Positions 2,448 through 54,138 of a stretch of DNA of 64,000 bases are shown here, one piece after another. Source of the DNA: Aurantimonas sp. (GTDB lineage: Bacteria; Pseudomonadota; Alphaproteobacteria; Rhizobiales; Rhizobiaceae); assembly GCA_965217685.1 (NCBI GenBank), contig CBDCIZ010000003.1, positions 697,657 to 761,656 of the forward strand, given 5' to 3'. Numbering within the stretch: the stretch's first letter is position 1; every line of letters starts with the position of its first letter. Under the pieces are notes generated by a model. It saw only the letters and a list, made by a program, of their open reading frames with translations. It was not told the origin of the DNA and did not search any database. A program made the translations under genes and the position numbers.

Positions 2448-2603
2448 AATACAATTCCCGGTTCATGGACTCCGGACAGGGCTTGAAGTCCACTCGGAAA
2501 GGCGCCGCCAAGGAGCTGCGAGATCAAAACGGGTCCTGAGAAAACGGGAGATATGGGGAAAACGCCAGGCCGCACACGGCACGTTCGACACCGATCGGAG
2601 TGA

Positions 2604-3566: not shown

Positions 3567-3793
3567 CCCAAGGGCACCAAGACGTATGGGTGCAGAAATT
3601 TTCGGCACGTCTTCTTCCAAGCATTGCGCAGAAAGCGCTCAGATTCTTCGGCCGCATAGAAATCAGGCCAAGGCTTCGCCTGGACACAAGCTTTTATGCG
3701 CCAATCGTCAAGAATGACGTCCACAAAGCTGTTTAGCTTCCTGAACGCGCCGCAAGAGCCGCCCGTAAGAAAGGGAGCCAGCACGGCGAGAAT

Positions 3794-5833: not shown

Positions 5834-5838
5834 AAGCA

Positions 5839-7797: not shown

Positions 7798-7873
7798 AAG
7801 CTGCGTCCGCCTCGTTGCCCCTTCGCACCAAGCTACTGTCAATGCCCCGAAACCCGAAGAAGGATTGCAGATC

Positions 7874-8962: not shown

Positions 8963-8980
8963 CATCGCGTCCGACGACCC

Positions 8981-9006
8981 GGCGGACAGGCTCTGGCCTG
9001 TCCGCC
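8981..9006 (+). promoter_or_regulatory. intercistronic stem-loop after the SBP gene
   Basis: Perfect 10-bp stem GGCGGACAGG / CCTGTCCGCC with a 6-nt loop, between the SBP stop (8962) and the ATPase start (9029). There is no T-tract, so it is more likely an mRNA-stability or attenuation element than a full terminator. Confidence 0.4.
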
Positions 9007-9028
9007 CCACTGTATTCCAGGAGACGCC

Positions 9029-12619: not shown

Positions 12620-12685
12620 TCAATCGAAGCACCGGAGCCGAACGCGCTCCTCGGTGCCGCAAGACCCAAAGCGAGCTTTTCAATC

Positions 12686-13573: not shown

Positions 13574-14031
13574 TCATCCGTCTGACCGTCAATGGCGAGG
13601 AACGCGAGTTCGCCGCCGAACCGATGGCCCCGCTCCTCGACGTCCTGCGCGACACGCTGCATCTGACCGGCGCAAAGCCCGTCTGCCGGGAAGGCTTTTG
13701 CGGCGCCTGCATGGTGCTCGTGGACGGCATTCCGACCGTCTCTTGCCTGACACCGGTGGCCCTGGTCGGGGAGCGCGCGATCGAAACGGTCGAGGGGCTC
13801 ACATCGGCCGCCGAACCGACGCCGGTCCAGGCGGCCCTCGAAGATCATGACGCCGTCCAGTGCGGCATGTGCTTTCCCGGCATGGTGGTCACCCTCAACC
13901 ACCTGACCAAGCCGGGAAATTGCGCGCCGAACCGCGAGGCAGTCAAAGCAGGACTGGCCGGTAATATCTGCCGCTGCACCGGCTACGAGCGCATTGTCGA
14001 CGCTGCCCTCGCGGTGATGGAACGGTCGTGA
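13570..14031 (+). CDS. (2Fe-2S)-binding small subunit of molybdenum hydroxylase
   Basis: 153 aa. Cys clusters CREGFCGACMV...C and CGMCFPG...CRCTGY. TTG start overlaps the upstream stop. Confidence 0.9.
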   Translation: MIIRLTVNGEEREFAAEPMAPLLDVLRDTLHLTGAKPVCREGFCGACMVLVDGIPTVSCLTPVALVGERAIETVEGLTSAAEPTPVQAALEDHDAVQCGMCFPGMVVTLNHLTKPGNCAPNREAVKAGLAGNICRCTGYERIVDAALAVMERS

Positions 14032-16403
14032 TGGACAAGGAAGCAATGGACAAGGCAGCCCAGACCGTGGTCCAGGACTTTCGTCGGCGCGACGCCAGCG
14101 ACAAGCTGATGGGTCGCACCCGCTACACCATCGATCGTGGCACGACGGGCATGCTCCACGCCATGCTTCTGCGATCCGAAGTGCCGAGCGGACGAATCGT
14201 CCGCCTCAATGTCGACGCGGCCGCGCGTATGCAGGGCGTGCGCGCCATCGTCACCAGCGCCGATGCGCCGGGCCGCGCCGGGCTGGGCATTGCCGACCAT
14301 CCGCTTTTCGCCGTCGATAGGGTGCGCTATTGCGGCGAGCCGATCGCCGCGATAGCGGCCGAGACGGAGCGCCAGGCCCAGGCCGCCCTTGCGTCAATCG
14401 AGATCGAGATCGAACCGCTTCCCGCGATCCTCGACATGGGATCGGCCCTCGCCGAAGATGCGATACTCGTTCATCAGGACTGGCAAAGCTACCAGGTGCT
14501 GCACGAAGGTGGTGCCCGCGGCGGCAATGTGGCGTGGGAGGCCATCGTCGACCGTGGCGACGTCGATGCTGCCTTTGGCCACGAAGACGTCACGGTGGTC
14601 GAGAGCACCTTCCGCGTCGGCCGCCAAAATCACCTGTCCTTCGAGCCTCGCGCGGTGGTGGCCCATTACGAAGACGGTCGCTTCCACATCGAAACCTCGA
14701 CGCAGGTGCCCTGGACCGTGCGTAACACGACGGCGGTCCTCCTGGGCGTTCCAGCTTCGACGATCCGCGTCACGGTTCCACCCGTCGGCGGCGGCTTCGG
14801 CCTCAAATTCGACTGCGCGCTCGAACCCTTCGCCGCTCTCCTGGCGAGGAAGGCCGGCCGCGCCGTTCGCCTCGTCAACAGCCGCGAGGAGGAGATGCGG
14901 ACCTGTCTGTTCCGGGAAAACGCCGAGATACGCATTCGCTCGGCGATCGCGCCGGACGGGACGATCGCCGGCCGCGAAGCGGTGGTGCTGATGGATTGCG
15001 GCGCCTATGGCGGCGAACAAGTGTTCCTCACCACGATGACCGCCCACACGCTCGGCGGCAATTATCGGCTTGGCTCCACCCGCATCGTCACGCGCGCCGT
15101 CTATACCAACACCGCACCCAACGGGGCCTTCCGGGCTTGCAACGGAGTATACAACACCTTCGCGCTGGAACGGCACACCGACGAAATCTGCGCCGCGATT
15201 GCCATGACACCGGACGCGTTCCGCCGCAAGAACGTTATCGGCAACGGCGATCTGGGCTCGACCGGCCAGGTCTTCGAGGGCGACGTGTTGGTCCCGATGC
15301 TCAACAAGATGGCGGCCCTGCGCGCAAAAAGCCCGGCGAATCCGCCGGCCGACCGGCGCCTTCACGGCCGAGCGACGACGGTCGGAACCTGGTTCGTCTT
15401 CACCGGCCCATCGGCAGCGACCGTCAATATGAACGCCGACGGCAGCGCCACGCTCGTTACCAGCGGTGTCGAGATCGGCTCTGGATCGATGATGCAGTCG
15501 CTGCCGCAGATCGTCGCCGCGACCCTCGGCCTTTCGCCCGATCAGGTGGTGGTACGCGCCGCCGACACCGATGCCGCCGGCTACGATGTCGGTGTTGGCG
15601 GCGGCCGCACCACGGTCTCGCTCGGCGCGGCCAGCCGCTCGGCCGCCATCGAGGTGCGCACAAAGCTGTTGAAGGTCGCGAGCGACATGCTCGAAGCGTC
15701 GGAAGACGACCTTGTCCTGAAAGACGGCCGCATCGAGATTGCTGGTGCAAGGAGGTCCGGCGTGACGATCGCCGAAGTCGCCACACGCGCCCAGGTCCTC
15801 TTTGGCCCGGTCGCAGGCACAGGCTCCTTCGCGGCTGCCGGGACACCCGCGGCGGCGGGCTGCTGCGCCGGCCATTTCATCGAAGCCTTGGATATCCCCG
15901 TTTTCGCAGTCCACGATTGCGATGTCGCCGTCGATCCCGACACCGGTCATGTCGAGGTGCTGCGCTATCGCGTCGTGCAGGACGTCGGCAAAGCGTTGAA
16001 CCCCAGCGCCATCCACGGCCAGATCCAGGGCGGTGTCGTGCAGGGACTCGGCTACGCGCTGCACGAAGAGGCCGATGTCGGCCCGGACGGCGAGATCCGC
16101 CAATTGGGCTTCGAGACCTATCGCGTACCGCTCGCGGGCGACGTGGTCCCCGTCGAGATCGAGTTGCACGAGGGCGCCCCGTCCCTCGGCCCCCACGGCG
16201 CCAAGGGTGCCGGCGAAGTACCGATCCTCAACGTCGGCGCGACCATCGCCTGCGCCGTCGCCAACGCCATCGGCAAGCGCGTCTCGCAACTGCCACTAAC
16301 GCCACCACGGGTGCTGGCGCTTTTGCTGGACGAGACGCCGGCGCTCGAACTGCCTCACATCAAGCCCCGCCACGAAGACAATGTGCTGCCCAACACGCAA
16401 TGA
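14028..16403 (+). CDS. molybdopterin-binding large subunit, xanthine dehydrogenase/aldehyde oxidase family
   Basis: 791 aa. Overlaps the small-subunit stop. GAFRA/GGGFG-type segments of the XDH family. I did not see the CO-dehydrogenase active-site loop (AYRCSFR). Confidence 0.9.
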   Translation: MMDKEAMDKAAQTVVQDFRRRDASDKLMGRTRYTIDRGTTGMLHAMLLRSEVPSGRIVRLNVDAAARMQGVRAIVTSADAPGRAGLGIADHPLFAVDRVRYCGEPIAAIAAETERQAQAALASIEIEIEPLPAILDMGSALAEDAILVHQDWQSYQVLHEGGARGGNVAWEAIVDRGDVDAAFGHEDVTVVESTFRVGRQNHLSFEPRAVVAHYEDGRFHIETSTQVPWTVRNTTAVLLGVPASTIRVTVPPVGGGFGLKFDCALEPFAALLARKAGRAVRLVNSREEEMRTCLFRENAEIRIRSAIAPDGTIAGREAVVLMDCGAYGGEQVFLTTMTAHTLGGNYRLGSTRIVTRAVYTNTAPNGAFRACNGVYNTFALERHTDEICAAIAMTPDAFRRKNVIGNGDLGSTGQVFEGDVLVPMLNKMAALRAKSPANPPADRRLHGRATTVGTWFVFTGPSAATVNMNADGSATLVTSGVEIGSGSMMQSLPQIVAATLGLSPDQVVVRAADTDAAGYDVGVGGGRTTVSLGAASRSAAIEVRTKLLKVASDMLEASEDDLVLKDGRIEIAGARRSGVTIAEVATRAQVLFGPVAGTGSFAAAGTPAAAGCCAGHFIEALDIPVFAVHDCDVAVDPDTGHVEVLRYRVVQDVGKALNPSAIHGQIQGGVVQGLGYALHEEADVGPDGEIRQLGFETYRVPLAGDVVPVEIELHEGAPSLGPHGAKGAGEVPILNVGATIACAVANAIGKRVSQLPLTPPRVLALLLDETPALELPHIKPRHEDNVLPNTQ

Positions 16404-16454
16404 GTTGCGGCGCAAGCGACGTGCGCGCTGACAGACAACCAAGAGGAGAGTTCA

Positions 16455-17789
16455 ATGGATCAGCTACCCAATTCGATCGAGGCCCGCGACAAGGCCTATC
16501 AACTCCATCCGCTGGTCGATCTGCGCCATCACGAGACCGCCGGGTCCCTGGTGATCGACCGCGGCGAAGGCATCTATGTCTACGACACGACAGGCAAGCG
16601 ATATATCGAGGGCCTTGCGGGCCTTTGGTCAGTCGCCGTCGGCTTCGGCGAAAAGCGTCTCGCCGAGGTCGCGAAGGCACAGATGGAGAAGCTGCCCTAC
16701 TACCACCTCTTTTCCTACAAGACTCACGGTCCCTCGGTGGATCTCGCCGAAAAGCTGATCCAGATGGCGCCGGTGCCCATGTCGAAGGTGCATTTCACCT
16801 CGTCGGGTTCTGAAGCGAACGATCTCGTGGTCAAGCTCTGCTGGTATCGCGCGAACGCCCTCGGCAAGCCGGACAAGAAAAAGATTATCGGCCGCATCAA
16901 GGGCTATCATGGCGTCACCATCGCAGCCGGCTCGATCACCGGCCTTGCGCGAAATCATGCAAGTTTCGACCTGCCGCTCGACCGGATGCGTCATACCCAT
17001 TGCCCGGACTACGATTCCATGGCGAAGGAGGGCGAGAGCGAGTCGCAGTTCTCTCGGCGCATGGCCGATGAACTCGAAAATCTGATTCTCGAGGAAGGCC
17101 CGGAGACCATTGCCGCCTTCTTCGGCGAACCGGTGATGGGCTCTGGCGGTGTCTACGTGCCGCCGGAAAACTACTGGCATGAAATTCAGCGTGTCCTGAA
17201 GAAACACGACATCCTGCTCGTTGCCGACGAGGTGATCACCGGTTTCGGGCGCACCGGAAACATGTTCGGCTCACAGACCTATGACATGAAGCCCGACGTA
17301 ATGGTGATTTCCAAGCAGATGGCGTCGTCCTACATGCCGATCGCCGCGATCCTGATGAGCGAGGAATTCTACGGTCCGGTCGCCGACGAGTCCGAACGGA
17401 TCGGCGTCTTCGGCCATGGCTTTACTGCTTCCGGCCACCCGGTGGCGACAGCCGTGGCGCTCGAGAACATCAAGATCATCGAAGAGCGCGATCTCCTGGG
17501 CAATTGCCGAACCCTGGCTCCGCGCTTCCTCGAACATCTCGACGACCTGACCCGCCACAAGCGGGTGAAGCTGAAACGCGGCGTCGGCCTCATCGGTGCG
17601 CTGGAACTCCATGCCGATGGCGAACCCGGCCGGGTCGGCGCGGCCATGGCGGCGGCGGCACTGGAAGAAGGCGTGATCGGTCGCTCGGTCGGGGATTCGT
17701 TCTGCCTCTGTCCGCCGCTGATCATCAGCGACGCCGATATCGACGCCATGTTCGCAGCGGTCGGCAGCGCGCTTGACCGACTCGGATGA
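16455..17789 (+). CDS. class-III (omega) aminotransferase, PLP-dependent
   Basis: 444 aa. SGSEANDL, DEVITGFGRTG and the Schiff-base lysine context ISKQMASSY. Confidence 0.9.
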   Translation: MDQLPNSIEARDKAYQLHPLVDLRHHETAGSLVIDRGEGIYVYDTTGKRYIEGLAGLWSVAVGFGEKRLAEVAKAQMEKLPYYHLFSYKTHGPSVDLAEKLIQMAPVPMSKVHFTSSGSEANDLVVKLCWYRANALGKPDKKKIIGRIKGYHGVTIAAGSITGLARNHASFDLPLDRMRHTHCPDYDSMAKEGESESQFSRRMADELENLILEEGPETIAAFFGEPVMGSGGVYVPPENYWHEIQRVLKKHDILLVADEVITGFGRTGNMFGSQTYDMKPDVMVISKQMASSYMPIAAILMSEEFYGPVADESERIGVFGHGFTASGHPVATAVALENIKIIEERDLLGNCRTLAPRFLEHLDDLTRHKRVKLKRGVGLIGALELHADGEPGRVGAAMAAAALEEGVIGRSVGDSFCLCPPLIISDADIDAMFAAVGSALDRLG

Positions 17790-17957
17790 CCACCATGCCG
17801 GTCCAAACCTTGCAGGTTCCGCTGCCGTCTCGATCCGACTACGCCCCGTCTTTGCGGCGTCGGACGAGGCAACATCGCCAAGACCTCGACCGCTTGCGGC
17901 GGCGCAGATCAAGTCGGACCCGAGCCGGTCGGTCAGGTTCGTGGCCGACGGAGTATC

Positions 17958-18790
17958 TTGGCTTCGATGCCGTCCCGGGACCGAGAAAAACGACATACTC
18001 GGGAGTATTCCAAACCGATTGGCATTGACGTCGGGGGCACAAATACGGATGCGGCCCTAATGGACGGTATGCGTGTCGTCGCATCGTGCAAGTCGCCGAC
18101 GACCGGCAGACGTATCGTCCGGAGTTGTTTCGGTGCTGAAGACAGCTCTGGGCGACAGTGCGACGCCGTGATGATCGGGACGACACATTTCACCAATGCC
18201 GTCGTTGAGAAGCGGCGGCTTTTGACGGTCGTGGCGATCTGCCTTCGGCCTGCCGGCGACCCGTACACTGCCGCCCATGACGGACTGGCCAGCAGATCTT
18301 GCTCAAACGCTTGGCCGCCATTGCTACATGGTTCACGGCGGCCACGAATTCGACGGGCGCAAAATTACCTCTCTCGACGAGGTCGAGGTCGAGGTCGAGG
18401 TCGTTCGAATTGCCGGCGATATGAGGAGCAAGGGCCTTAAGAGCACTGCCATCACCTCGGTTTCCCCCCGTTATGCCGATCATGGAGGAACGCGCAGCGG
18501 ACAACCTGCGCAGCGCAATTTCCGACGTAACGCTGTCCTTGAGTCACAAAATCGGCCGAGTCGGCTTTCTGGAGCGCAAAAACGCGTCGATCATGAACGC
18601 CTGCCTGACCGATCTGTCGAGGCACGTCATTCACTCTTCCGCCAGCCAAGGACACTGTGAAAATCATGGATATCCGAGAAATCCCCCTCGCCTACCTGCC
18701 CGGCTCAGCTACCCGTATCCGGGTCAAGGCCGTAGGCGATCTGATCATTGGATAACGCAATTTAGGCATCCGCGGAAAGTTTGGAGATAA
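17958..18790 (+). pseudogene. decayed hydantoinase/oxoprolinase-family gene
   Basis: Homology is spread over three frames. Frame 0: KPIGIDVGGTNTDAALMDG...AVMIGTTHFTNAVVEKRRL. Frame 1 from ~18250: MTDWPADLAQTLGRHCYMVHGGHEFDG. Frame 2 from ~18470: PIMEERAADNLRSAISDVTLSLSHKIGRVGFLERKNASIMNACL. No piece exceeds 160 aa, and the total is far shorter than intact family members. Confidence 0.6.
18379..18402 (+). repeat. hexanucleotide tandem repeat (GAGGTC)x4
   Basis: Four perfect copies, read as EVEVEVEV, inside the decayed hydantoinase-like gene. Confidence 0.9.
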
Positions 18791-18814
18791 ACTGGCCAGA
18801 CGAAGAAATTGAAT

Positions 18815-20146
18815 TCAGACGCCGGTCATTGGAACGATCTTCGAACCATCCGAGAAGCGCGAGAACCGGAACGCATCGGGATTGACGATCGGCGGATCTC
18901 CAGCGGAGAGATCAGCGGCAAGCCGCCCGGCACCTGGCCCAAGTCCGAAACCGTGACCTGAGAAACCCGTAGCCACAACGAGTCCCGAGCAGCTTTTTAC
19001 TTTCGAAATAACCGGTACGGCATCGGGCGTCACATCGATGAGGCCGGCCCAGCGTTGAGCAATTTCTGCGTTCCGGAACGCCGGGAAGGCCTCGGCCAAT
19101 CGTTTCATTGCGGTATTGCCCATCTCGATGTTTGGCTCCGGATCAAGAATGCGCGTCCGCTCATAGCGGCTTTCCTGGCCCGGTATTCCCCGACGCATGT
19201 CGCGCCATTCCTCGAAGAAGCGGCGACCGATGCGCGGCGACATGGCTTTCCACTCCATCTTGAGCGCGGGCATGAACTGGCGGGCAAAGCGGAAGCTGTC
19301 CGGTGTCAGATCGAAAATGTTCGATGCAAGTGTCGAAACCGTATATCCGCCATCGGCCCGCTTTCTGACGGAAAACCCCGGACCTCGCACAGTCACGTCC
19401 GGCCCGCCTTCGATCGGCCTGGTGCGAAGAACCGAGTTGAGCACCTTGAGCTGCGGCAGAGTGATCCCGATATCGCGCAACAGAAGTCGGGACCATGCGC
19501 CGCCGGCAACGACGACCCGGTTCGTTCTGATCCGCCCGCGCTCGGTGACGACGCCGCTGATGGCACCGTCCAAACATTCGATTTCGCGGACCGCACAACC
19601 CGTCAGGATGGTTCCGCCCTTCGCCTTGACTGCGCGAGCGATCGCGGGCGCCGTCGTCTGGGGCTCGGCGCGACCATCCGTCGGAGAATAGAGCGCGCCG
19701 TCATAGTCGAGGTTCATGTCCGGCGTCAGCGTTCTCACGTCGTCGCTGCCGATCGCCGACACGCGATATTGCGTGTCCTTGATATAATCGAGCCATTTGA
19801 CGTTCTCGTCTCTGAACACTTCGGAATAGAATGGAACGACAATTCCGCACTGGCGGTAACCGACATCGTGCCCGATCCGTTCTGCGAGCGTTTCCCAGAT
19901 GCGGATCGAAGCGGCCATCAGGTCGATTTCCCGGGGATCGCGTCGGGACATGCGCACCCAGCCCCAGTTCCGACTGGACTGCTCTCCGGCGATCACACCC
20001 TTCTCACACAGAACGACCGAATGGCCTCGCTCGACGAGTTCGAGCGCAGTCGAAACGCCGACGATTCCGCCGCCGATGACGACGACGTCGGCTTCATTTG
20101 CAAAGTGGGTCGAGGCTTCGACCGGATCGACCATGGGGCCGGGCAT
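18815..20146 (-). CDS. FAD-dependent oxidoreductase (DAO / D-amino-acid-dehydrogenase-like)
   Basis: 443 aa. N-terminal dinucleotide fold DVVVIGGGIVGVSTALELVERGHSVVLCEKG. Confidence 0.9.
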   Translation of the reverse strand: MPGPMVDPVEASTHFANEADVVVIGGGIVGVSTALELVERGHSVVLCEKGVIAGEQSSRNWGWVRMSRRDPREIDLMAASIRIWETLAERIGHDVGYRQCGIVVPFYSEVFRDENVKWLDYIKDTQYRVSAIGSDDVRTLTPDMNLDYDGALYSPTDGRAEPQTTAPAIARAVKAKGGTILTGCAVREIECLDGAISGVVTERGRIRTNRVVVAGGAWSRLLLRDIGITLPQLKVLNSVLRTRPIEGGPDVTVRGPGFSVRKRADGGYTVSTLASNIFDLTPDSFRFARQFMPALKMEWKAMSPRIGRRFFEEWRDMRRGIPGQESRYERTRILDPEPNIEMGNTAMKRLAEAFPAFRNAEIAQRWAGLIDVTPDAVPVISKVKSCSGLVVATGFSGHGFGLGPGAGRLAADLSAGDPPIVNPDAFRFSRFSDGSKIVPMTGV

Positions 20147-20230
20147 TGCATTGAACTTTCTGGGAGGAAGGAATGCTTCGCGCCATGGCCGTCAGTACAC
20201 TGCGGCCTTTATGGAAATGTCAGCGATTGG

Positions 20231-21265
20231 TCACGCCGAAGCAGAAGCGAGCTTGCGCACCTGCTCGAGGATCTGCGGATCGATTTCGACGCCGTTCCGG
20301 TCTGCTTTGGCTCTCGCTGCGTAACGCCTGCTGCCCGGAAGCCGCGTGCCATCCTGTTCGGCTACTACTGCGGCAATCCGGGTGATGCGTTCTGCAAACG
20401 CGTTTCCAGCCGTCACATCGGGCGCAATCGCGATGAAGAACTGACCGGTCCTCGGAGGTCCGCCGCTCGTGCCGCTGAAGGGCGCGGCGTCGATGCCGAG
20501 CATGGCTCCGGTCAATGCCGCTGCCATGACTTCGGTAAGTAGCGCCAGCCCCACGCCCTTATAGCCTCCGAGCGGCGCCATCGTACCGCCAAGCGCTGCA
20601 TCGGGGTCGGTCGTCGGATGGCCATCGACGTCAAGAGCCCAGCCCTCCGGGATCGCCTCACCCCGACGGGCCCGCTTCATGACCTCGGATTTCGCAACCA
20701 CGCTGGCGCTTTGATCGATGGTCAAAGCGGGGCCATCGGGGCCCGGCACAGCAAGCGCGAATGGATTTGTTCCGAAGACGGCGCGAGTTCCGCCGGCAGG
20801 CGCGATCGATGCAGGCGAATTGGTGAAACCAATACCGACGAGGCCTTTTTCGGCAAGCCATTCTACATGATAGCCGAGCGCGCCGCAATTGTAGGACTCA
20901 TGGATGGCAAGGCACGCGATGCCGTTGCTTTCGGCGGCCGGGATCAGAGCGGAAAATCCAAGATCGATCGATGGATGGGCGAACCCGGTCCTCGCATCAA
21001 CGATGACAGCTGCGGGGCGCGGCTGGCTCAGAACCGGCTCGGCCTTTCCATCGACCTTGCCGCATTCGACATGCGAACAGTAGGTCGGAACATACATGAG
21101 CCCGTGACTCGCTATCCCATCGCGCTCGGCGGCAGCGACGGCACGTGCAAGCGAACGGGCACTGGTATCTCTCGTCCCGGCGACTTTGAGGGCGGAGAAC
21201 GCCAACTCCTGGATTTGCGAAGGCGTCAAGGTGGAAGTGGCGCTCATGGTCGCGTCCTCAGTCAT
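20231..21265 (-). CDS. Ldh_2 family (malate/L-lactate dehydrogenase type 2) oxidoreductase
   Basis: 344 aa with family-typical segments (AAERDGIASHGLMYVPTY, GYKGVGLALL). ATG at 21247, preceded by GAGGA, may be the true start. The 21265 start would overlap the upstream stop by 8 nt. Confidence 0.85.
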   Translation of the reverse strand: MTEDATMSATSTLTPSQIQELAFSALKVAGTRDTSARSLARAVAAAERDGIASHGLMYVPTYCSHVECGKVDGKAEPVLSQPRPAAVIVDARTGFAHPSIDLGFSALIPAAESNGIACLAIHESYNCGALGYHVEWLAEKGLVGIGFTNSPASIAPAGGTRAVFGTNPFALAVPGPDGPALTIDQSASVVAKSEVMKRARRGEAIPEGWALDVDGHPTTDPDAALGGTMAPLGGYKGVGLALLTEVMAAALTGAMLGIDAAPFSGTSGGPPRTGQFFIAIAPDVTAGNAFAERITRIAAVVAEQDGTRLPGSRRYAARAKADRNGVEIDPQILEQVRKLASASA

Positions 21266-21902
21266 TGTCGGATGTTGCAGCTCCTGCGCCGCTCACGCGG
21301 GAACTCTCGGTCGACGGCGCATGGGTTTTGCCGGCGAGCCGTACGAGCACCTGATAGGCCTTTGCGCTGACGAAGCGGGAGCCGGTTTCGGGAAGCTGTG
21401 CAGCCTTGTCGATCGCCGCATTGTCGTCGCAGCAGACAACGTCGCGTCCGACCGGATAGTCGGTGCCGCCGCGCTGTTCGATCGCCAATGCGTCTGGGAA
21501 ACAGGTGGCGGAGAAGTCCTGCCAGCGAAGTGTCAGCGTGACCCCGAGCGCATTGGCCGACCGGCTCGCCTGACCCAGCAGCAGGAGTGGCTCCGCAACG
21601 TCGCCCAGATCGGCCGCTTTTCCGTCCGCAATATCCCCGGCCTCGTCGGACAGTTGGGCTCCGCTGGCGATCGCGCAATTCGGTGCTCCCGTCTCGCCGG
21701 TGCAACCGCAGCTTCTTCGAGCTGTCAGGAGCGAAGCCAATGCTTCGGGGCCCGGAAGGCCATAACCGGCGATCCAGCGAGCCGCCTTGCCGGCCTCTTC
21801 CGCAAGCCCCCAGGGGCACCCCGCACCCCTTGCAGCCTTCCGGGCGAGCGCATCGATCTCGGAGAGCGACAGGCGAATCGGACGGCTTTCTTCGCCGGTC
21901 AT
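21258..21902 (-). CDS. conserved hypothetical protein, 214 aa (resembles what I recall as DUF3726)
   Basis: Uninterrupted ORF with ATGA overlap to the upstream 571-aa ORF. N-terminus LSEIDALARKAARGAGCPWGLAEEAGKAARW and a Cys-rich patch SCGCTGETGAPNC. No catalytic family recognised. Confidence 0.6.
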   Translation of the reverse strand: MTGEESRPIRLSLSEIDALARKAARGAGCPWGLAEEAGKAARWIAGYGLPGPEALASLLTARRSCGCTGETGAPNCAIASGAQLSDEAGDIADGKAADLGDVAEPLLLLGQASRSANALGVTLTLRWQDFSATCFPDALAIEQRGGTDYPVGRDVVCCDDNAAIDKAAQLPETGSRFVSAKAYQVLVRLAGKTHAPSTESSRVSGAGAATSDND

Positions 21903-23614
21903 GCCGCGACCTCGTTCAAGGGCGGATAGGCCCAGTCGTCGGACGGCGACGTCCCGAGTTCATGGGGAAAGGGCGCGTTCTGAAACATGCAGATGCGCAC
22001 CCAACGATCCGACCGGGGATCGAACCGCGTCGCGCCGAAGAAGGATAATTTGCAGCGCAGGATGTCGATTGGCATCATCTCCGCGCCGATCAGATTATCT
22101 CTGATCTCCGCATAGGGCCGGCCAGCCGAAAGCTGAACGCGTCGAACCGTATGACGATGTTGCGGATGAGCTCCAAGAAAGCCAGCAACCGTGGGTGGCT
22201 CTGTGGAAACGCCTTTCAGATCAGCCGAAAGAATGGATATCGCTCGACCGACGTCTAGCGGTTGTTCGTATTCGGCGCCGACGTCCTGATGGCGCTCGCC
22301 GAGACGAGGCTCCAGCTTTTCCTCCGAAACGTACCAAAACCGGGACCTGTTTTTCGGTTCGGCGTAATCGACGTCAAGCGCCCAGGTATAGTTCTCGGCA
22401 ATCAGGTCTTTGAGCTTTGCAACAGGCATCGCTCCCTCGATGCGGAAGCACGCGTTTTCGTCGACATGCATCGTTGCCGTCAGATCATCGACGCATTCGC
22501 CATAGGGTTCGAGGATCAATGCGGCAACCTGTTCCTGCGCTTCGATGCCGAGATTGTCTTCCGACCATGAGATGAGTTCGTCCCACGGATGACCGGTTTC
22601 GAGCGCGTCCGTTTCGATGTGCGCTGCGAGCGTTTCGAGATCGCGGCGAAGGATCTCACATCTCTCGTTCTGGCTGGGGTGATCGGTATGCCAACTCTCG
22701 GCATTCAGTCGAGCCCGCTTCAGATATGACCGGAAATGACTGCGCTCCACCGAAGTGGCCTTCGGCATCGCGCGGACGCGGACAATCGCGGTTTCGCGTG
22801 CCTTCATCCAGGCATCGAGAAGCGCAGGATGGTTGACCAGAAACGGCGCCATGCCAAGGCCCGTCGAATTGCCTACGCCGAAACGCCGGCGCAACTCCGG
22901 ATCGATCGCCGTCGCCGCGCTCCCGCCGTTGACGTGCGCTGCATGCTCGGCAAGATCGAGCGTGAAGGCGCGGATCAGCCAGACAGACAGCATCTCGATG
23001 TGGAAAGGCGCACTCATCACCTGACGCCCAAGCAGTGCGGCCCGGTCGGCGGCGCCGAACTTGCCCGAGCCGTAAACCGCCGTCGTCCGCATCAGGTAGC
23101 CGACCTTGTCGATCTCGTGGATCGAAGGCTGCAAGCCCTTCGCCAGACATTCGACGACATGGTTCCAGAGCCGAACGGAGCGATTGGCTCGGGACAGAGA
23201 AAGCTCCCGATCGCTGATGCGTCCCGCCTCCTGCAGCGGCACGTTTTCAGAAAGACGCGCGATGTCGTCCGCATCGGGCACGCCGTCGAACAGGGTAAAG
23301 GTTGCATCCCACGACGTCGCGATGACCCGATCGGAACGCATCTCGTCGGGAAGATCGTGGGCGAACGCGACCAGACTGTAGATTCGCCTCGGTCCCTTCG
23401 CCGTGTAAACCGCATGGCCGACGCCATTTCCGTCGATCGACCAGTCGGCGCATTCGAACGTCCAGTTCTCGCGCTTCAAGTGACGCAGTAGCGAGCGCAT
23501 GAACGAAAGCCGGGTCTGGTGAGCGCTTCCCATTCGCGAGAGGCGCATGACCATGTCGGGAGAACGAAGTTCGGGAGCCGGACCGGCATCGAGGACTGCT
23601 TGATCGAGGTTCAT
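21899..23614 (-). CDS. hypothetical protein, 571 aa, no recognisable family
   Basis: Long uninterrupted ORF with composition like its neighbours. It starts 35 nt downstream of the BCCT gene and overlaps the next ORF by ATGA. No TM segments, P-loop or metal-cluster motifs seen. Confidence 0.7.
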   Translation of the reverse strand: MNLDQAVLDAGPAPELRSPDMVMRLSRMGSAHQTRLSFMRSLLRHLKRENWTFECADWSIDGNGVGHAVYTAKGPRRIYSLVAFAHDLPDEMRSDRVIATSWDATFTLFDGVPDADDIARLSENVPLQEAGRISDRELSLSRANRSVRLWNHVVECLAKGLQPSIHEIDKVGYLMRTTAVYGSGKFGAADRAALLGRQVMSAPFHIEMLSVWLIRAFTLDLAEHAAHVNGGSAATAIDPELRRRFGVGNSTGLGMAPFLVNHPALLDAWMKARETAIVRVRAMPKATSVERSHFRSYLKRARLNAESWHTDHPSQNERCEILRRDLETLAAHIETDALETGHPWDELISWSEDNLGIEAQEQVAALILEPYGECVDDLTATMHVDENACFRIEGAMPVAKLKDLIAENYTWALDVDYAEPKNRSRFWYVSEEKLEPRLGERHQDVGAEYEQPLDVGRAISILSADLKGVSTEPPTVAGFLGAHPQHRHTVRRVQLSAGRPYAEIRDNLIGAEMMPIDILRCKLSFFGATRFDPRSDRWVRICMFQNAPFPHELGTSPSDDWAYPPLNEVAA

Positions 23615-23649
23615 GTGTCCGACTCCCGTTGTCTTGGTGTATCAGCGGA

Positions 23650-25200
23650 TCACGCGCTGCGGCCCTTCAGAAGGGTGATGCGCGCTGCGTCCCAAAGTGA
23701 AGGCAACAGCACCAGAGAGACAGGCACCGCCGTTACGACAATGAAGCTCTGCAACTTTCCGACTCCGCCCGAGCCGGTATAGATCAGGATCATCGCCATG
23801 ACGCCGATTGCAACGCCCCAGAACACGCGCACGGGCGTGGACGACCGGTCTTCGTCCGACATTGCGACCGAGATCACGTATGTCATCGAGTCACCGGTGG
23901 TGGCGACGAAGATGATCGTCAGAAGCATGAAGAGCAATGAGACGATCAGTCCGAAGGGCAACCCTTGCGTGATCGCCAGAAGCGCAGCCGGCAAGTTGAA
24001 GCCCTCGAATGCCGCCGCGACCGTGTTCGGATTGGCGAGTTCCATGCCGATTCCGGTTCCGCCGACGATCGTGAACCAGAAGGTGGTGACGATAGGCGCA
24101 ACGATCGAAAGCATGACAATGATCGAGCGTATCGAGCGGCCACGGCTGATGCGGGCGATAAACATTGCCATCAAAGGACCGTAACCAAGGAACCAGCCCC
24201 AGAAAAACACAGTCCACCAGCCGAGCCAGCCCGGGTCGCCAAAGACCCCGGCGTCGCCGCGATAGAGCGCAATCTGGAAGAATTTGGCGATGTAAAGGCT
24301 GAACCCTTCAAACCAGCTTTCCAGGATGAAGGCCGTCGGACCTGCGGCCAACACGAAGACGACGAGTACAAAAGCCAAGACGATGTTGATCCGGCTGAGA
24401 AGTTGGATGCCACGATTGAGGCCGGTAACGGCCGAGGCCGTATAAAGGACGACCAGTCCGGTGATGATCACGGCTTGCGTCGCGAAGACATCCGGGATTC
24501 CGAACAATTCGTTGGCGCCATAAGAGACCTGAAGGCCGAGGAAGCCGATAGGGCCAACGGTTCCGGCGACGACAGCGATAATGCAGCACGCATCCGCAAT
24601 CAGACCGATCGGTCCGTTGATGGCGCGCTCCTTGAACACCGGGTAGAGCAATGTGCGCGGGGCCATCGGCAGGCCCTTCTCGTAGTGGTAGTGCATGAGC
24701 ATGACGGTGGTCAGCGAGCCGAGGATTGCCCAGGCGAGAAACCCCCAGTCCATGAAGCTCTGCGCCAGAGCCGGAGCGACCGCTTCGGGCGTGCTGCCCG
24801 TTACGCCGGAAAACAACGGCGGTGGCGAGACGAAATGGGCCATAGGTTCGCCTGCCGCCCAGAAAACGCCGCCGCCTGCGAGCAGCGTGCACATGATCAT
24901 CGAGCCCCATTGGAAGTACGAGAATTCCGGTGTTTCAAGACCACCCAGCTTGGCTTTGCTGCCGGGTAAAACACACAATCCCAGACTGATCAGAAAGGTC
25001 GCAAGCAGGAGGATTTGCCAATAAAGACCGAAGAACCGTGCAGAAAAGTCGAAACCGACGTCGACCGCCGCCGAAAGACCGTCAAGGTCGACGAGCGCCC
25101 AGACGCAAAACAACGCGATGAAGCCGCCGGTAATTGCAAACAGCGGTACGTTTATGTGTCCGTCGGGCGAAAGTGCCGAGGGAATGGTGTTTTCACTCAT
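23650..25200 (-). CDS. BCCT-family (betaine/carnitine/choline) transporter
   Basis: About 516 aa from MSENTIPSAL, with 12-TM-like hydrophobic profile and a Trp-rich segment WTVFFWGWFLGYGPLMAMFIARISRGRSIR typical of BCCT TM8. The track ORF extends to 25395, but ATG at 25200 overlaps the dipeptidase stop (ATGA). Confidence 0.9.
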   Translation of the reverse strand: MSENTIPSALSPDGHINVPLFAITGGFIALFCVWALVDLDGLSAAVDVGFDFSARFFGLYWQILLLATFLISLGLCVLPGSKAKLGGLETPEFSYFQWGSMIMCTLLAGGGVFWAAGEPMAHFVSPPPLFSGVTGSTPEAVAPALAQSFMDWGFLAWAILGSLTTVMLMHYHYEKGLPMAPRTLLYPVFKERAINGPIGLIADACCIIAVVAGTVGPIGFLGLQVSYGANELFGIPDVFATQAVIITGLVVLYTASAVTGLNRGIQLLSRINIVLAFVLVVFVLAAGPTAFILESWFEGFSLYIAKFFQIALYRGDAGVFGDPGWLGWWTVFFWGWFLGYGPLMAMFIARISRGRSIRSIIVMLSIVAPIVTTFWFTIVGGTGIGMELANPNTVAAAFEGFNLPAALLAITQGLPFGLIVSLLFMLLTIIFVATTGDSMTYVISVAMSDEDRSSTPVRVFWGVAIGVMAMILIYTGSGGVGKLQSFIVVTAVPVSLVLLPSLWDAARITLLKGRSA

Positions 25201-26240
25201 GACATTGCTCCGGTTTGCGCTCTCGCGGCGCCATGCCACTGCAGCGACGTCAATTCGGACCCGGCCGGTCCAAAGCTTGCATCGAAAAAGCGGAGCCAAT
25301 TGCCACCCATGATGCCGGCGGTCTCGTACGCATCGAATCCTATGGCGCGCAGCCCGTCTTCGATCCTGTGGAAGTGACGATTGTCTTCGAACCAATTCGG
25401 CATCGGCGGAAAACCCGGCGCCGTAGCGCTGCCCTCACCGAAATCCTCGCCTTTGGTCCAGCGTCCCATACGCATCCACTTCACGACGCTGTCCGGCTGA
25501 TCCTGGCAAAGGTCCGAGCCGACCCCAAAATGCTCAGCGCCGATCATTTCTGCGGTGCGGGCAATCATTTCGCAGAAGCTCTCAAGCGTGCAGGCGCTCT
25601 TGTTCTTGAGATGATGCGGGTAAAGGGAAAAGCCGAGCATGCCGCCACTTTCGGCCAGAGCCCTGATCACCCGATCCGACTTGTTGCGCAGCGCCGGTGC
25701 CCAAGAGGCCGGATTGGCGTGCGTGATCGCAATTGGCCGCGTGCTGCAGGCGATGGCTTCAAGCGTCGATCGTTCGGCGGAATGGCTCATGTCGACGACG
25801 AGGCCAACCCGATTCATCTCGGCAATGACTTCGCGGCCCATGCGCGTCAGGCCTGGATCCTCGTCCTCGTAGCATCCCGTCGCGAGAAGCGACTGGTTGT
25901 TGTAGCTGAGCTGCATGAAGCGGGCGCCAAGCTGATGAACGATTTCGACGAGCCCGATATCGTCCTCTATCGGCGAGGGGTTCTGAAATCCGAAAAAGAT
26001 CGCGGTTCTGTTCATGCGCCGCGCTTGGCGCACGTCGTCGCCGCGCATCCCGCGCATGATAAGATCGGGATGATCCTCGAACCAGCGGTTCCAGCGAGAG
26101 AAGTTCATGACCGTCTCGCGAAAGTTCTCGTGATAGGCGATGGTCACGTGGACGGCGTCGACACCGCCCTCGCGCATCTGCCGGAAGATGCGTTCGGACC
26201 AATTGGCGTATTGAAGTCCGTCAATCCGAAAACCGATCAT
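25197..26240 (-). CDS. membrane (renal) dipeptidase family M19-like metallohydrolase
   Basis: From MIGFRIDGLQYANW. M19-like segments (VVDMSHS, ITHANP). ATG at 26240 overlaps the ALDH stop (ATGA). Confidence 0.85.
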   Translation of the reverse strand: MIGFRIDGLQYANWSERIFRQMREGGVDAVHVTIAYHENFRETVMNFSRWNRWFEDHPDLIMRGMRGDDVRQARRMNRTAIFFGFQNPSPIEDDIGLVEIVHQLGARFMQLSYNNQSLLATGCYEDEDPGLTRMGREVIAEMNRVGLVVDMSHSAERSTLEAIACSTRPIAITHANPASWAPALRNKSDRVIRALAESGGMLGFSLYPHHLKNKSACTLESFCEMIARTAEMIGAEHFGVGSDLCQDQPDSVVKWMRMGRWTKGEDFGEGSATAPGFPPMPNWFEDNRHFHRIEDGLRAIGFDAYETAGIMGGNWLRFFDASFGPAGSELTSLQWHGAARAQTGAMS

Positions 26241-27697
26241 GCCGGCTCTCCAGACCGGATGTAGGCGGTCTTGACTGTCGTATAGAATTCCCTGGCATAT
26301 TGACCCTGTTCGCGGGGACCATAGGAGCTGTGACCCCGGCCACCGAACGGCACGTGATAATCGGTTCCAGCCGTCGGCAGGTTCACCATGACGCATCCGG
26401 TTCTCGCATGGCGCCGAAAATGGCTGGCCCGCGAAAGGCTTTGCGTGACGATGCCGGAGGTAAGGCCGTATGCGGTGTCGTTGGCGGTCGCGAGCGCCTC
26501 GTCATAGCTATCGGCGCGAATGATACAGGCGATAGGGGCGAACATTTCCTCACGGTTGACGCGCCAGGCGTTTTTCGTCCCGGCAATGACTACAGGGGCC
26601 ATGAAATAACCCTCGGTCTCGCGGTCCAGCCGGTCTCCGCCGCACAGGATCTCACCGCCTTCTTCTCTTGCAAGAGACATGTATTCGAAGTTCTGTTCGA
26701 GCTGGTCTTCGCTGACGACTGGGCCCATCTGGGTCTGCAGGTCGAGGGCATGGCCGACGCGCATCGCCTTCGCTTCGGCAACCAAACGTTCGACGAAAGC
26801 GTCATGGATCGCCGGATGTACGACCAGACGCGACGATGCTGTGCATTTCTGGCCGGTGCCGCCAAACGCGCCGTTCACGGCGCATGTGACGGCGATGTCC
26901 AAGTCCGCGCCGTCCATGATCGCGAGGGCATTTTTCGAACCCATTTCGCACTGGACGCGAGCGAGACTACCGGCACCCGCGGCTGCGATCTGGCGTCCGA
27001 CGGCCGTCGACCCGGTGAAGGTGATGGCATCGATCCCGGGGTGTTCGATCAGTTTCTGTCCGACACTACCGCCCGGTCCCATGACAAGGCTGAAAAGGCC
27101 CTCGGGAAGACCCTGACGAACGATAATATCGGTGAGGGCGACTGCCGATGCCGGCACCAGATTGGCCGGCTTCCAGATCACCGCGTTTCCGAATGCAAGC
27201 GCCGGTGCGATCTTCCAGGCGGCGGTCGCCATCGGAAAATTCCAGGGCGAGATGACGGCGACCACGCCGACGGGCTCACGGCGGATATCGACTTCGACCC
27301 CGGTCCGCACACTGTCGGCGGTTTCCCCCATCTGCCGCAAGACCTCGGCGCCATAATAGGTAAAGAACTGACCAGCGCGGTGGACCTCGCCACGCCCTTC
27401 GGCCAACGACTTGCCCTCTTCACGACTCAGCAACATGCCGAGTTCTTCGGAACGCGCCATAAGCTCGTGGCCGATCGCAATCAGCTTATTGCTGCGCGTC
27501 TCGAGCCCGGTTGTGGCCCAACGTCGCTGAGCAAAGGCCGCGGCTTCGACGGCCCGGTCCACATCTTGAAACGAGGCCTGGGCGAAGGATCCGATGACGT
27601 CCGAGAGATCCGACGGGTTTCGGTTCTCGACCACGGTCGAGCCGGATTTCCATTCGCCTGCGATCAGGTTCAGACCATCGGACATCATCGCCTCCAT
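26237..27697 (-). CDS. NAD(P)-dependent aldehyde dehydrogenase
   Basis: 486 aa. ALDH motifs VISPWNFP, FTGST, CEMGSKNA (Glu) and GQKCTASSR (Cys). Confidence 0.9.
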   Translation of the reverse strand: MEAMMSDGLNLIAGEWKSGSTVVENRNPSDLSDVIGSFAQASFQDVDRAVEAAAFAQRRWATTGLETRSNKLIAIGHELMARSEELGMLLSREEGKSLAEGRGEVHRAGQFFTYYGAEVLRQMGETADSVRTGVEVDIRREPVGVVAVISPWNFPMATAAWKIAPALAFGNAVIWKPANLVPASAVALTDIIVRQGLPEGLFSLVMGPGGSVGQKLIEHPGIDAITFTGSTAVGRQIAAAGAGSLARVQCEMGSKNALAIMDGADLDIAVTCAVNGAFGGTGQKCTASSRLVVHPAIHDAFVERLVAEAKAMRVGHALDLQTQMGPVVSEDQLEQNFEYMSLAREEGGEILCGGDRLDRETEGYFMAPVVIAGTKNAWRVNREEMFAPIACIIRADSYDEALATANDTAYGLTSGIVTQSLSRASHFRRHARTGCVMVNLPTAGTDYHVPFGGRGHSSYGPREQGQYAREFYTTVKTAYIRSGEPA

Positions 27698-27760
27698 TCC
27701 GCCAAGCGAAAAGGATTGATGGAGAGCGCCTATTCAGTCAAACTAGAACTTCTGACCTTA

Positions 27761-27779
27761 ATTTCAGAAAAGCTGAAAT
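27761..27779. promoter_or_regulatory. candidate LysR-type operator (T-N11-A palindrome)
   Basis: ATTTCAG-AAAAG-CTGAAAT, a perfect 7-bp inverted repeat in the ALDH/LysR divergent region. A related TTCAG-N14-CTGAC lies at 27733-27756. Confidence 0.4.
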
Positions 27780-27781
27780 AT

Positions 27782-28651
27782 ATGCTGAAGCTCGAAGCAA
27801 TGCGCGTTTTTGTGGCGGTCGCGGAAACGGGGAGTCTCGCCGCGGCTGCCAATCGAATCGGGAGAACGCCAGGGGCTGTGTCCATGACCTTGAAGCAGGC
27901 GGAGGAGGAAATCGGCGGAGCCCTGTTCGACGCTGACCGGAAGGCCCGGTTGACGCCACTAGGCACGACGGTCTTGCGGAATTGCCGCCATGCCCTCGAA
28001 GCCTATGCCGCGGCGATGGGAGAAATCGAGCGATACACGCGCGGTGACGAGGGCACTTTGCGGCTGGCATCCACCCCGTCGATTGCAAGACGGGTCTTGC
28101 CATTGATCGTCTCGTCGATGCTGAAAACCCGGCCGAATCTGCAATTCGAAATCCGTGATGTCGATTCCCAATCCGTCGCCGAACTCACAACAGCCGGCCT
28201 GGTCGATTTCGGAATCGCGAGTCTGTCGGCGGCATCCCGCGGACTGAAGGCGGAAATGCTGTTGGAAGACAAGTTCCACGTCGTTTGCCTGAAGGGCCAC
28301 CCGCTCACCGTCGCTTGCGAGCCTGTCACGTGGGAGGCACTTTCCGCCTACGACTTCATCCACAACGGCCTTTGCGACGCGATCGGTTCGCAGGCCGTCG
28401 CAAAACTATCCGTCACGGCTCGTTTGCGCGCCCGCAATGTAGGCGCCTTGTTCGGCCTGATCGAATCCGGGCTTGGTGTGACGATCCTTCCTTCGCTCGC
28501 TGTGCCGGCAGAAGGGAGTTTGACCAGCGTGCCGTTGGCTGATCAGGCTGCAACGAGCCGTGTTCATCTTCTTAGCCGAGACGGAGACGCAGCATCTCCC
28601 ATCGCGCTCCTGTTCAGAGACGCAATACTTCGCTCAATACGCAGCATATGA
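27782..28651 (+). CDS. LysR-family transcriptional regulator
   Basis: MLKLEAMRVFVAVAETGSLAAAANRIGRTPGAVSMTLKQAEEE wHTH. The 783-aa track ORF (26300..28651) is an antisense read-through artefact; only the last ~290 aa are LysR-like. Confidence 0.85.
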   Translation: MLKLEAMRVFVAVAETGSLAAAANRIGRTPGAVSMTLKQAEEEIGGALFDADRKARLTPLGTTVLRNCRHALEAYAAAMGEIERYTRGDEGTLRLASTPSIARRVLPLIVSSMLKTRPNLQFEIRDVDSQSVAELTTAGLVDFGIASLSAASRGLKAEMLLEDKFHVVCLKGHPLTVACEPVTWEALSAYDFIHNGLCDAIGSQAVAKLSVTARLRARNVGALFGLIESGLGVTILPSLAVPAEGSLTSVPLADQAATSRVHLLSRDGDAASPIALLFRDAILRSIRSI

Positions 28652-29099
28652 AGCGAGATTTCACGATCATCGAATTTTGATACCGTAGTCTCTGGAACGA
28701 ATGCCTCGTCTTGATTGCGGCTATGCCTGACGCCGAAGGGCGCCTTTTTCCGCAAGGATCTCCGATGCCGGATAGTCCCCGTACGGCTCATCGCCGAACT
28801 GATGCCATGCTCGATTATGAATTGTGTGTCCAAAAATCAGATCGACAGCAACCTATCCAGACATGATAGGCTGTTTACTGTAGCGGACATTCAGGCCGAA
28901 GGAGCCTGTCCGCTTCAGTTGGCAAATTTTAACAAGCGGCCGTTCCGTTCACTTACAGGATTTTGTACGCTTCGCGGCGCTCGAAACCTTTTATGAAATC
29001 CAACCCGCAGTTTTTGAATTCGGTAGCGCGAATACGCCGCTTTTTTCGAAGTTTATCTTCGATCCTCTTCAGCCGCGCGACTGGCCTTGAAGTGCCGCA

Positions 29100-31774: not shown

Positions 31775-31840
31775 GCGTTCTTCGAAGGTGACCTCACCGG
31801 AAGAAACCGCGCCGGCGGCCGGACGGCGGCTGACCCGGTT

Positions 31841-54135: not shown

Positions 54136-54138
54136 GGA

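Follow-up and report, generated by a model that had tools for sequence, protein, structure and literature searches.

The window analyzed here is a stretch of 64,000 nucleotides (nt) from Aurantimonas sp. (assembly GCA_965217685.1, contig CBDCIZ010000003.1, positions 697,657 to 761,656 of the forward strand), and it contains two adjacent "hypothetical" genes, for proteins of 571 and 214 amino acids, that can probably be named, together with their neighbors, as a homarine utilization operon. An operon for the breakdown of homarine (N-methylpicolinate) was defined by Ferrer-Gonzalez et al. (Nat Microbiol, March 2026; PMC13236597). We estimate a probability of about 75% that the pair represents homB (571 amino acids) and homA (214 amino acids) of such an operon, with homR divergent from homD-homC-homT-homB-homA-homE(-DAO), and that the two products form its ring-opening enzyme. 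The genes and this kind of operon have thus already been described (PMC13236597). The original prediction for this DNA regarded the pair as an undescribed enzymatic or regulatory component at the center of a betaine-transporter operon. Its view of the pair as a key enzymatic part of the operon was sustained, while "undescribed" had to be given up, since both genes match the published homB and homA (PMC13236597); similarly, a BCCT transporter is indeed present, but the operon appears to be specific for homarine rather than a generic betaine operon. What we add is a predicted placement of HomA and its family, DUF3726, in the Ldh_2 superfamily, evidence that HomB may have an orphan fold, a set of widespread natural HomB-HomA fusions, and variants of the module from rhizobia, vibrios, and archaea. 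The hom genes matter for the flow of carbon and nitrogen in the ocean, given that the operon is present in SAR11, SAR116, and Rhodobacterales (PMC13236597).

Identification of the gene pair as homB and homA

The published cluster of Cobetia sp. OBi1 has the order homE, homA, homB, homT (a predicted glycine-betaine-type transporter), homC (peptidase-like), homD (aldehyde dehydrogenase-like), and homR, while SPO3188-3192 of R. pomeroyi DSS-3 correspond to homA, homB, homC, homD, and homR; the sizes given are approximately 700 nt for homA and 1,700 nt for homB, and the two genes are adjacent in 97.7% of 11,755 genomes (PMC13236597). Transposon mutants of R. pomeroyi in homB, homC, homD, or homR lost growth on homarine, and the products of homarine were N-methylglutamate and then glutamate (PMC13236597). 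In the window, homB (1716 nt) and homA (645 nt) overlap by 4 nt and agree with the published genes in both size and adjacency. The published rule for co-location asks for homC and homD within 10 kb, together with homR, and treats homT and homE as optional; the M19, aldehyde dehydrogenase, LysR, BCCT, and Ldh_2 genes of the window all lie inside positions 20231 to 28651, in the Cobetia order. The window resembles the Cobetia cluster in all seven genes and in their order, orientation, sizes, and neighbors, and it resembles SPO3188-3192 in gene content and sizes, with a distribution over Alpha- and Gammaproteobacteria common to both. Unlike these two systems, the window has an extra DAO-family gene after homE.

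Comparison with other genomes gave the same picture. The nearest relative among the loci compared was HomB of Jiella pelagia, which is 75% identical to the window protein and is encoded in the same seven-gene order, followed by HomB of Granulosicoccus antarcticus (63%) and a 567-amino-acid protein of Phaeobacter inhibens DSM 17395 (57.6%). The latter is encoded on a plasmid in the arrangement LysR, aldehyde dehydrogenase, M19, hypothetical protein (567 amino acids), and DUF3726, which is the five-gene composition of R. pomeroyi; R. pomeroyi itself was not among the 120 matches listed for the Phaeobacter HomB query. From synteny, sizes, domain content, and identity to proteins in like operons, the pair very likely represents orthologues of the published homB and homA. 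Our literature search found no further paper naming SPO3189 or DUF3726.

A competing possibility is a paralogous locus whose substrate is not homarine but a related osmolyte, either N-heterocyclic or N-methylated; trigonelline, picolinate, and betaines of the proline or pipecolate type are examples. The substrate assignment for the window organism rests on sequence comparison, BCCT transporters accept many betaines, and the HomB/HomA/M19 trio has diverged in S. meliloti pSymB, Vibrio, and Natrinema, where it is accompanied by other transporters and accessory genes. Nevertheless, HomB of the window belongs to a tight group of Alpha- and Gammaproteobacterial proteins with 55-76% identity in which the canonical hom gene set is always the same, and the seven genes of the window follow exactly the order of the Cobetia cluster, on which experiments have been done. 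Thus, we regard a different substrate as improbable.

HomB is a candidate orphan fold

The window has a GC content of 0.56-0.67 over the region from 14 to 32 kb, and long spurious antisense open reading frames (ORFs) are frequent there, so ORF length alone proves nothing. The 571-amino-acid gene is nevertheless real and strongly constrained, and not a chance ORF, since at least 8000 database proteins match its product at 60-76% identity and an exhaustive search returned 1485 matching representatives of 50%-identity clusters. According to the ORF list and the translations, both the 571- and the 214-amino-acid frames run without interruption on the minus strand. They are joined by an ATGA sequence that is read directly from the DNA, so that the two real, translationally coupled ORFs of the original prediction stand as described.

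The same prediction held that the larger protein could not be assigned to any family, and our searches agree with it. HomB had no match in Pfam or NCBIfam, and it had none in the PDB by single sequence, by a 119-sequence profile, or by a diverse profile of 58 sequences; when the 58 diverse HomB-like proteins were scanned member by member (E ≤ 5), no Pfam family was common to more than one of them. The AlphaFold model of HomB had a predicted local distance difference test score (pLDDT) of 86 and a predicted template modeling score (pTM) of 0.89. A whole-chain Foldseek comparison of this model with the PDB returned noise only (best E of 1.2, TM score of ≤0.10), and neither the profile searches nor Foldseek gave a confident match to a characterized family. 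HomB thus appears from its model to be an orphan fold with no solved relative. A kinase-like structure was considered and rejected: chains of IRE1, MLKL, and APH(9) appeared at E values of 5 to 8, and a GSGKFG loop resembles the kinase Gly-loop, but the order of the secondary-structure elements is unlike that of a kinase N-lobe.

Conservation in HomB is concentrated in charged and aromatic residues and in glycine loops. Invariant or near-invariant positions, down to 29% identity, included eight arginines (R96, R132, R142, R176, R215, R437, R492, and R520) as well as D103, H262, E274, E361, E435, and several tryptophans. Two Gly-rich loops were also kept, YG-x-GKFG at approximately residues 181 to 187, which has low pLDDT, and G-x-GN-x-TGLGMAPF at residues 246 to 258. 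No conserved Cys cluster was present in HomB, as C521 and C542 were near-invariant among close homologues only and not in the diverse set. These features suggest an active site that binds an anion or a nucleotide and do not single out a specific cofactor.

HomA is probably related to the Ldh_2 enzymes

The 214-amino-acid protein matched DUF3726 (PF12525) over residues 11 to 63 with an E value of 7.8e-18 and a score of 64.6 bits (cutoff, 22.1), as its N terminus had led the original prediction to expect. DUF3726 was the only family found by Pfam and NCBIfam, and no PDB entry matched HomA by sequence. The HomA model (pLDDT of 92) was more informative: in a Foldseek comparison with the PDB, the top 27 matches were all Ldh_2 enzymes (probability of ≤0.99, E values of 1e-2 to 1, and query TM scores [TMq] of 0.35 to 0.49), including YiaK, AllD, DpkA, type-2 malate/lactate dehydrogenases, and sulfolactate dehydrogenase. 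HomA itself had no Pfam Ldh_2 (PF02615) match, and its profile was weakly positive against a small Ldh_2 alignment in hhalign (E of 0.0057, within the N-terminal 60 residues), with the alignment being dependable over approximately these first 60 residues only.

The relation to Ldh_2 was supported by longer HomA-like domains that bridge both families by sequence. Of 17 such domains fused to HomB, four matched Ldh_2 in Pfam (best E of 1.8e-7) and three matched DUF3726, and the profile of the long domains matched the Ldh_2 structure 1z2i at an E value of 1.3e-11 and several other Ldh_2 structures at 1e-3 to 1e-4. Taken together with the model, these links identify HomA/DUF3726 as a predicted truncated and degenerate domain of the Ldh_2 superfamily. 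HomA shares with Ldh_2 proteins (PF02615; AllD, YiaK, and DpkA) the N-terminal helix-loop-helix signature detected by hhalign, and its model suggests a similar fold; it differs from them by a family-specific C-terminal tail, SR..GAGAG..DND, and by always having HomB as a partner.

The tail is the most conserved segment of HomA. It comprises residues 190 to 214 (window positions 21258 to 21335) and has the consensus TYAPATEASR-AGAGAGLTDND, while the mean column identity for the whole protein is 38%. Residues P196, S201, R202, G205-A206-G207, and D212 were invariant, and they had low pLDDT in the monomer model, as expected if this stretch folds only when bound to a partner. Thus, the Gly-rich tail probably contributes to the interface or the active site of the complex with HomB. 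A Cys patch that the original prediction had pointed out is present in the window protein but does not behave as a conserved metal or cofactor motif. Among 119 homologues, C76 was conserved in 99%, C134 in 74%, C157 in 68%, C65 and C67 in 23 to 24%, and C158 in 9%, and with only C76 universal the patch was rejected as an Fe-S or metal-cluster site.

HomB and HomA are consistently associated and often fused

The original prediction had set the occurrence of the pair beyond this genome as its own test, and the result spoke strongly for co-occurrence. A HomA-type gene was located directly 3' of a HomB-type gene, or fused to it, in all 15 related loci examined, and the core consisting of aldehyde dehydrogenase, M19, HomB, and DUF3726 genes was likewise found in 15 of 15, including those of Jiella pelagia, Granulosicoccus, and Phaeobacter inhibens DSM 17395. 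Wherever coordinates were compared, the HomA matches listed for the plasmid collection also adjoined a HomB match.

Fusions were surveyed in the best 150 of the 1485 HomB representatives. Thirty of these 150 were at least 690 amino acids long, and five or six carried a full-length HomA match at the C terminus. Additionally, 18 representatives had C-terminal extensions of 270 to 371 amino acids that, as a group, were homologous to HomA (hhalign probability of 96%, E of 3.6e-9). Single-chain HomB-HomA fusions of 760 to 943 amino acids made up approximately one-fifth of the best 150 representatives, and the longer ones had a more complete Ldh_2-like C-terminal domain. One fusion, WP_199201047.1, is an 814-amino-acid RefSeq protein encoded on a complete plasmid of Mesorhizobium sp. 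131-2-1 (7959 to 10403 of the stretch examined), where a LysR gene is divergent from the series aldehyde dehydrogenase, M19, fusion gene, and Ldh_2. Frameshift artefacts as the general cause of the fusions were ruled out by this RefSeq protein on a complete plasmid.

Because fusion is recurrent and the separate genes are translationally coupled, the comparative data support a complex of HomB and HomA, in agreement with the published AlphaFold heterodimer, which was confident (interface pTM [ipTM] plus pTM of 0.92 to 0.95; PMC13236597). For expression and structural work, the natural fusions would also be convenient, since they offer both partners in a single chain.

Proposed reaction and alternative explanations

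We propose that HomB and HomA would act as one heteromeric enzyme for the committed step, which would dearomatize the N-methylpyridinium and open the ring between C5 and C6. The step is assigned to HomAB because SAR11 genomes retain only homABCD and lack homE (PMC13236597), and because the aldehyde dehydrogenase and the M19 protein have obvious downstream roles. HomB would be the catalytic subunit, and HomA would either handle a nicotinamide cofactor or hydride or have a structural part, with its conserved Gly-rich C-terminal tail inserted into HomB. An Ldh_2-derived HomA that delivers or positions NAD(P)H is chemically attractive because Ldh_2 enzymes reduce cyclic imino acids, of which homarine is the aromatic counterpart. 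Ldh_2 substrates include cyclic imino acids with the carboxylate next to the C=N bond, i.e., a reduced analogue of homarine. The SHG motif of Ldh_2 enzymes contains a catalytic His that has no counterpart in HomA, where the aligned positions read G-Y-G or A-x-G, and the long HomA-like domains lack it as well. HomA is also approximately 130 residues shorter than the Ldh_2 enzymes. Its binding of a cofactor is uncertain for these two reasons, and for the same reasons a purely structural role of HomA and a role in positioning NAD(P)H are equally possible.

The published labeling data guide the assignment of the later steps. 13C7 homarine gave 13C6 N-methylglutamate, i.e., the N-methyl group and six of seven carbons were kept, and the intermediates had the formulas C7H9NO5, C6H9NO4, and C6H9NO3 (PMC13236597). 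From the isotope data and atom bookkeeping, the lost carbon would be ring C6, with cuts at C5-C6 and N-C6. The order of the downstream steps was derived from the chemistry and the published formulas. HomB-HomA, with two reducing equivalents and O2, would produce an N-formyl-N-methyl unsaturated aldehyde (C7H9NO4), which HomD would oxidize to C7H9NO5. HomC, the M19 amidohydrolase, would then remove the formyl group as formate to give dehydro-N-methylglutamate (C6H9NO4), and HomE, as an Ldh_2 imine or ene-imine reductase, would reduce this to N-methylglutamate. The C6H9NO3 compound could be the deformylated aldehyde or N-methyl-5-oxoproline. Finally, N-methylglutamate would be demethylated to glutamate, perhaps by the adjacent DAO-family flavoenzyme, which is put forward because mgd or sox genes were not found in the window. 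A route of C5-C6 cleavage, deformylation, and reduction fits the published formulas and the loss of one carbon.

The published hypothesis is a two-component flavin oxygenase of the TgnA/TgnB type, in which HomA would be a flavin reductase and HomB an O2-activating oxygenase (PMC13236597). TgnAB of Acinetobacter baylyi opens the ring of trigonelline (N-methylnicotinate), an isomeric N-methylpyridinium carboxylate, with two proteins; FAD-binding motifs have been reported in HomA, the analogy to trigonelline ring opening has been drawn, and the homarine intermediates fit an analogous scheme (PMC13236597). Their formulas are compatible with the use of O2 and two reducing equivalents, and the Gly-rich loops and many arginines of HomB could hold the phosphate of a nucleotide or flavin. 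TgnAB is reportedly (Perchat et al. in 2018) an enzyme with an N-formyl-N-methyl product that is then oxidized by a dehydrogenase and hydrolyzed. HomA and HomB had no detectable relation to TgnAB in sequence, domain, or fold. In Pfam and NCBIfam, neither protein matched a flavin reductase, a known oxygenase, or a domain that binds FAD or FMN. HomB matched no known oxygenase fold in the Foldseek search of the PDB, and HomA leads, by its predicted fold and through intermediate sequences, to Ldh_2, whose members are nicotinamide dependent and flavin free. We therefore consider a TgnAB-type flavin enzyme unlikely. With HomA appearing to be Ldh_2-like and not the proposed flavin reductase, NAD(P)H, rather than or besides FAD/FMN, should be the first cofactor for in vitro trials.

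The pair could also be noncatalytic and form a complex that serves in regulation, as a chaperone, or as an accessory to transport, while the ring is opened by the M19 protein, the aldehyde dehydrogenase, or an unlinked enzyme. Such a role would be in line with the failure to assign any cofactor or catalytic motif to the pair and with the pseudoenzyme-like character of HomA, in which the SHG His is missing. We nevertheless judge it highly improbable, since the charged and aromatic residues of HomB are extremely conserved across the full 570 amino acids and, judging from established enzymology, M19 and aldehyde dehydrogenase chemistry would be unable to dearomatize a pyridinium ring. Furthermore, HomB is kept in SAR11 genomes, which are streamlined and without homE, and is needed for growth of R. 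pomeroyi on homarine (PMC13236597).

Several observations weigh against our assignment of the pair as the ring-opening enzyme of a homarine operon, in addition to the changes in HomA that were described above. The orthology rests on synteny, size, domain content, and 55-63% identity to proteins of like operons rather than on direct alignment. The Foldseek E values for HomA are weak (1e-2), and the fold search for HomB compared the whole chain with the PDB only, so that a domain-level relative could escape it. Unlike in the published description, the FAD motif of HomA was not reproduced, and no flavin-reductase or FAD/FMN-binding domain was seen in the window protein with Pfam or NCBIfam. No mgdABCD or sox genes, for N-methylglutamate dehydrogenase, were found within the 64-kb window. 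Finally, all of the biochemical steps from homarine are proposals, by whomever they have been made.

A broader proposal is that HomB founds a new fold and, together with a degenerate Ldh_2-like HomA, performs a flavin-independent, nicotinamide-linked dearomatization and ring opening of N-methylpyridinium carboxylates, and that the HomB/HomA/M19 modules of rhizobia, vibrios, and haloarchaea have come to act on other substrates. We offer it tentatively, as an idea that is possible and still doubtful.

Organization of the operon

On one strand, the genes follow each other 5' to 3' as aldehyde dehydrogenase, M19, BCCT, 571-amino-acid gene, DUF3726, Ldh_2, and DAO, with the LysR gene divergent (Table 1). 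A GGGAG sequence, which resembles a Shine-Dalgarno site, precedes the ATG of the 571-amino-acid gene. The stop codon of homA (TGA, 21258 to 21260) lies within ATGACTGA, and with the homE ATG at 21265 the two genes overlap by 8 nt, as the original prediction had noted; a second in-frame ATG of homE at approximately 21244 is an alternative start and would leave a short gap to homA instead.

Table 1. Coordinates in the window of the predicted homarine operon and its adjoining features
Feature	Position	Strand	Remarks
DAO family FAD-dependent amine oxidase/dehydrogenase gene	18815..20146	-	PF01266, E 6e-74
homE-like gene, Ldh_2 family NAD(P)H oxidoreductase, 344 amino acids	20231..21265	-	PF02615, E 4.6e-94
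homA-like gene, 214 amino acids, ATG start, 645 nt	21258..21902	-	DUF3726
ATGA stop/start overlap of homB and homA, GGCATGACC	21899..21902	-	Direct sequence reading
homB-like gene, 571 amino acids, ATG start, 1716 nt	21899..23614	-	Candidate orphan fold; probable catalytic subunit of the ring-opening step
homT-like gene, BCCT transporter	23650..25200	-	PF02028, E 3e-146; flanked by homB and homC like homT of Cobetia
homC-like gene, M19 "membrane dipeptidase" family amidohydrolase	25197..26240	-	PF01244, E 3e-72
homD-like gene, aldehyde dehydrogenase	26237..27697	-	PF00171, E 5e-151
homR-like gene, LysR-type regulator, divergent	27782..28651	+	HTH_1 and LysR_substrate domains; probable start at ATG 27782

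The longest ORFs extend to 26396 for the M19 gene and to 25395 for the BCCT gene, and the PF01244 match begins only at residue 63 of the M19 ORF. The true starts are probably ATG 26240 for homC and ATG 25200 for homT, with the longest-ORF coordinates overshooting, because these positions fit the beginnings of the Pfam matches and the lengths of the homologues. With these starts, homD/homC (26237 to 26240) and homC/homT (25197 to 25200) would also be joined by ATGA overlaps, and the operon would thus be chained by translational coupling. A scan of positions 18000 to 29200 for promoters and terminators gave sites no more numerous than in shuffled sequence.

The neighbors of the pair differed in how far they are conserved. 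At the related loci, homD was kept upstream of homC, and the M19 gene was directly upstream of homB in most of them. The closest NCBIfam models for homD were 2,5-dioxovalerate and alpha-ketoglutarate-semialdehyde dehydrogenases, under their cutoffs. The Ldh_2 gene also adjoins homA in Jiella, Granulosicoccus, and Mesorhizobium. Its family is the one that contains the Pip2C/Pyr2C reductase and N-methyl-amino-acid dehydrogenases. By position, the Ldh_2 gene of the window corresponds to the published HomE; the main text of the paper does not name the family of homE (PMC13236597). The divergent LysR gene was found at the same place in Jiella, Granulosicoccus, Mesorhizobium, and Vibrio, and in Phaeobacter it is codirectional with the operon. 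The DAO gene is located 84 nt downstream of homE on the same strand; its best NCBIfam matches were ThiO, SoxB, and MTOX, each under its cutoff, and it was not kept beside the hom genes at the other loci compared. It may be a local addition to the operon.

Antisense or overlapping ORFs of up to 783 amino acids lie opposite real genes at 26300 to 28651 (+), 19055 to 20542 (+), and 14394 to 16289 (-) and are high-GC artefacts. The real LysR gene occupies only the last 289 codons of the 783-amino-acid ORF.

Distant versions of the module

More distant HomB-like proteins were found in Vibrio campbellii (40% identity), on a Natrinema plasmid (31%), and on S. meliloti pSymB (29%). In S. meliloti 2011, pSymB (8755 to 19366 of the stretch examined) carries a distant paralogous module with genes for a HomB-like protein, a HomA-like protein of 251 amino acids, and an M19 protein, followed by those for a four-gene ATP-binding cassette (ABC) transporter, a class-III aminotransferase, and an aldehyde dehydrogenase. 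Between this aminotransferase and the one encoded at 16455 to 17789 of the window, the identity is 51%. On plasmid pNVE500 of Natrinema versiforme (5035 to 13285 of the stretch examined), the HomB-like gene (31%) is followed by a HomA-like gene for 317 amino acids, and the flanking genes encode an aldehyde dehydrogenase, a BCCT transporter, a DHDPS-family protein, and hydantoinase/oxoprolinase A and B subunits. With this haloarchaeal copy, the module crosses the domain boundary.

The Phaeobacter plasmids of approximately 262 kb (NC_018291.1, Phaeobacter inhibens pPGA1_262, and relatives) each match HomB at two separate places, and their hom genes stand beside genes for the demethylation of dimethylsulfoniopropionate (dmdA-like and dmdD). 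DUF3726 and M19 genes may also occur beside dgcAB (dimethylglycine demethylase) in Pseudomonas.

Other genes of the window

The operon is surrounded by other catabolic and transport genes. On the plus strand, positions 12686 to 17789 encode a molybdenum hydroxylase of the xanthine-dehydrogenase/CO-dehydrogenase type (FAD subunit at 12686 to 13573 and large subunit at 14028 to 16403), followed by a class-III aminotransferase (16455 to 17789). Molybdenum hydroxylases act on N-heterocycles, including picolinate. This cluster converges on the hom operon and is not kept at other hom loci.

Genes for LamB/YcsF (5-oxoprolinase subunit A-like) and hydantoinase/oxoprolinase A and B are located at 1650 to 7797 (+), and similar LamB/YcsF and oxoprolinase genes recur beside other HomB-type loci (Natrinema pNVE500, 1 to 2396, and another locus, 21508 to 21710). 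An ATP-dependent side route that opens a lactam could be imagined, C6H9NO3 having the formula of N-methyl-5-oxoproline, and this is pure speculation.

Two tripartite ATP-independent periplasmic (TRAP) transport systems of the TAXI type, each with an NMT1_3 binding protein and a fused DctQM-like permease, are encoded at 30806 to 33655 (+) and 47270 to 50274 (-), and a classical DctP/DctM TRAP system is encoded at 52846 to 55655. Overall, the window is a dense island of catabolic and transport genes.

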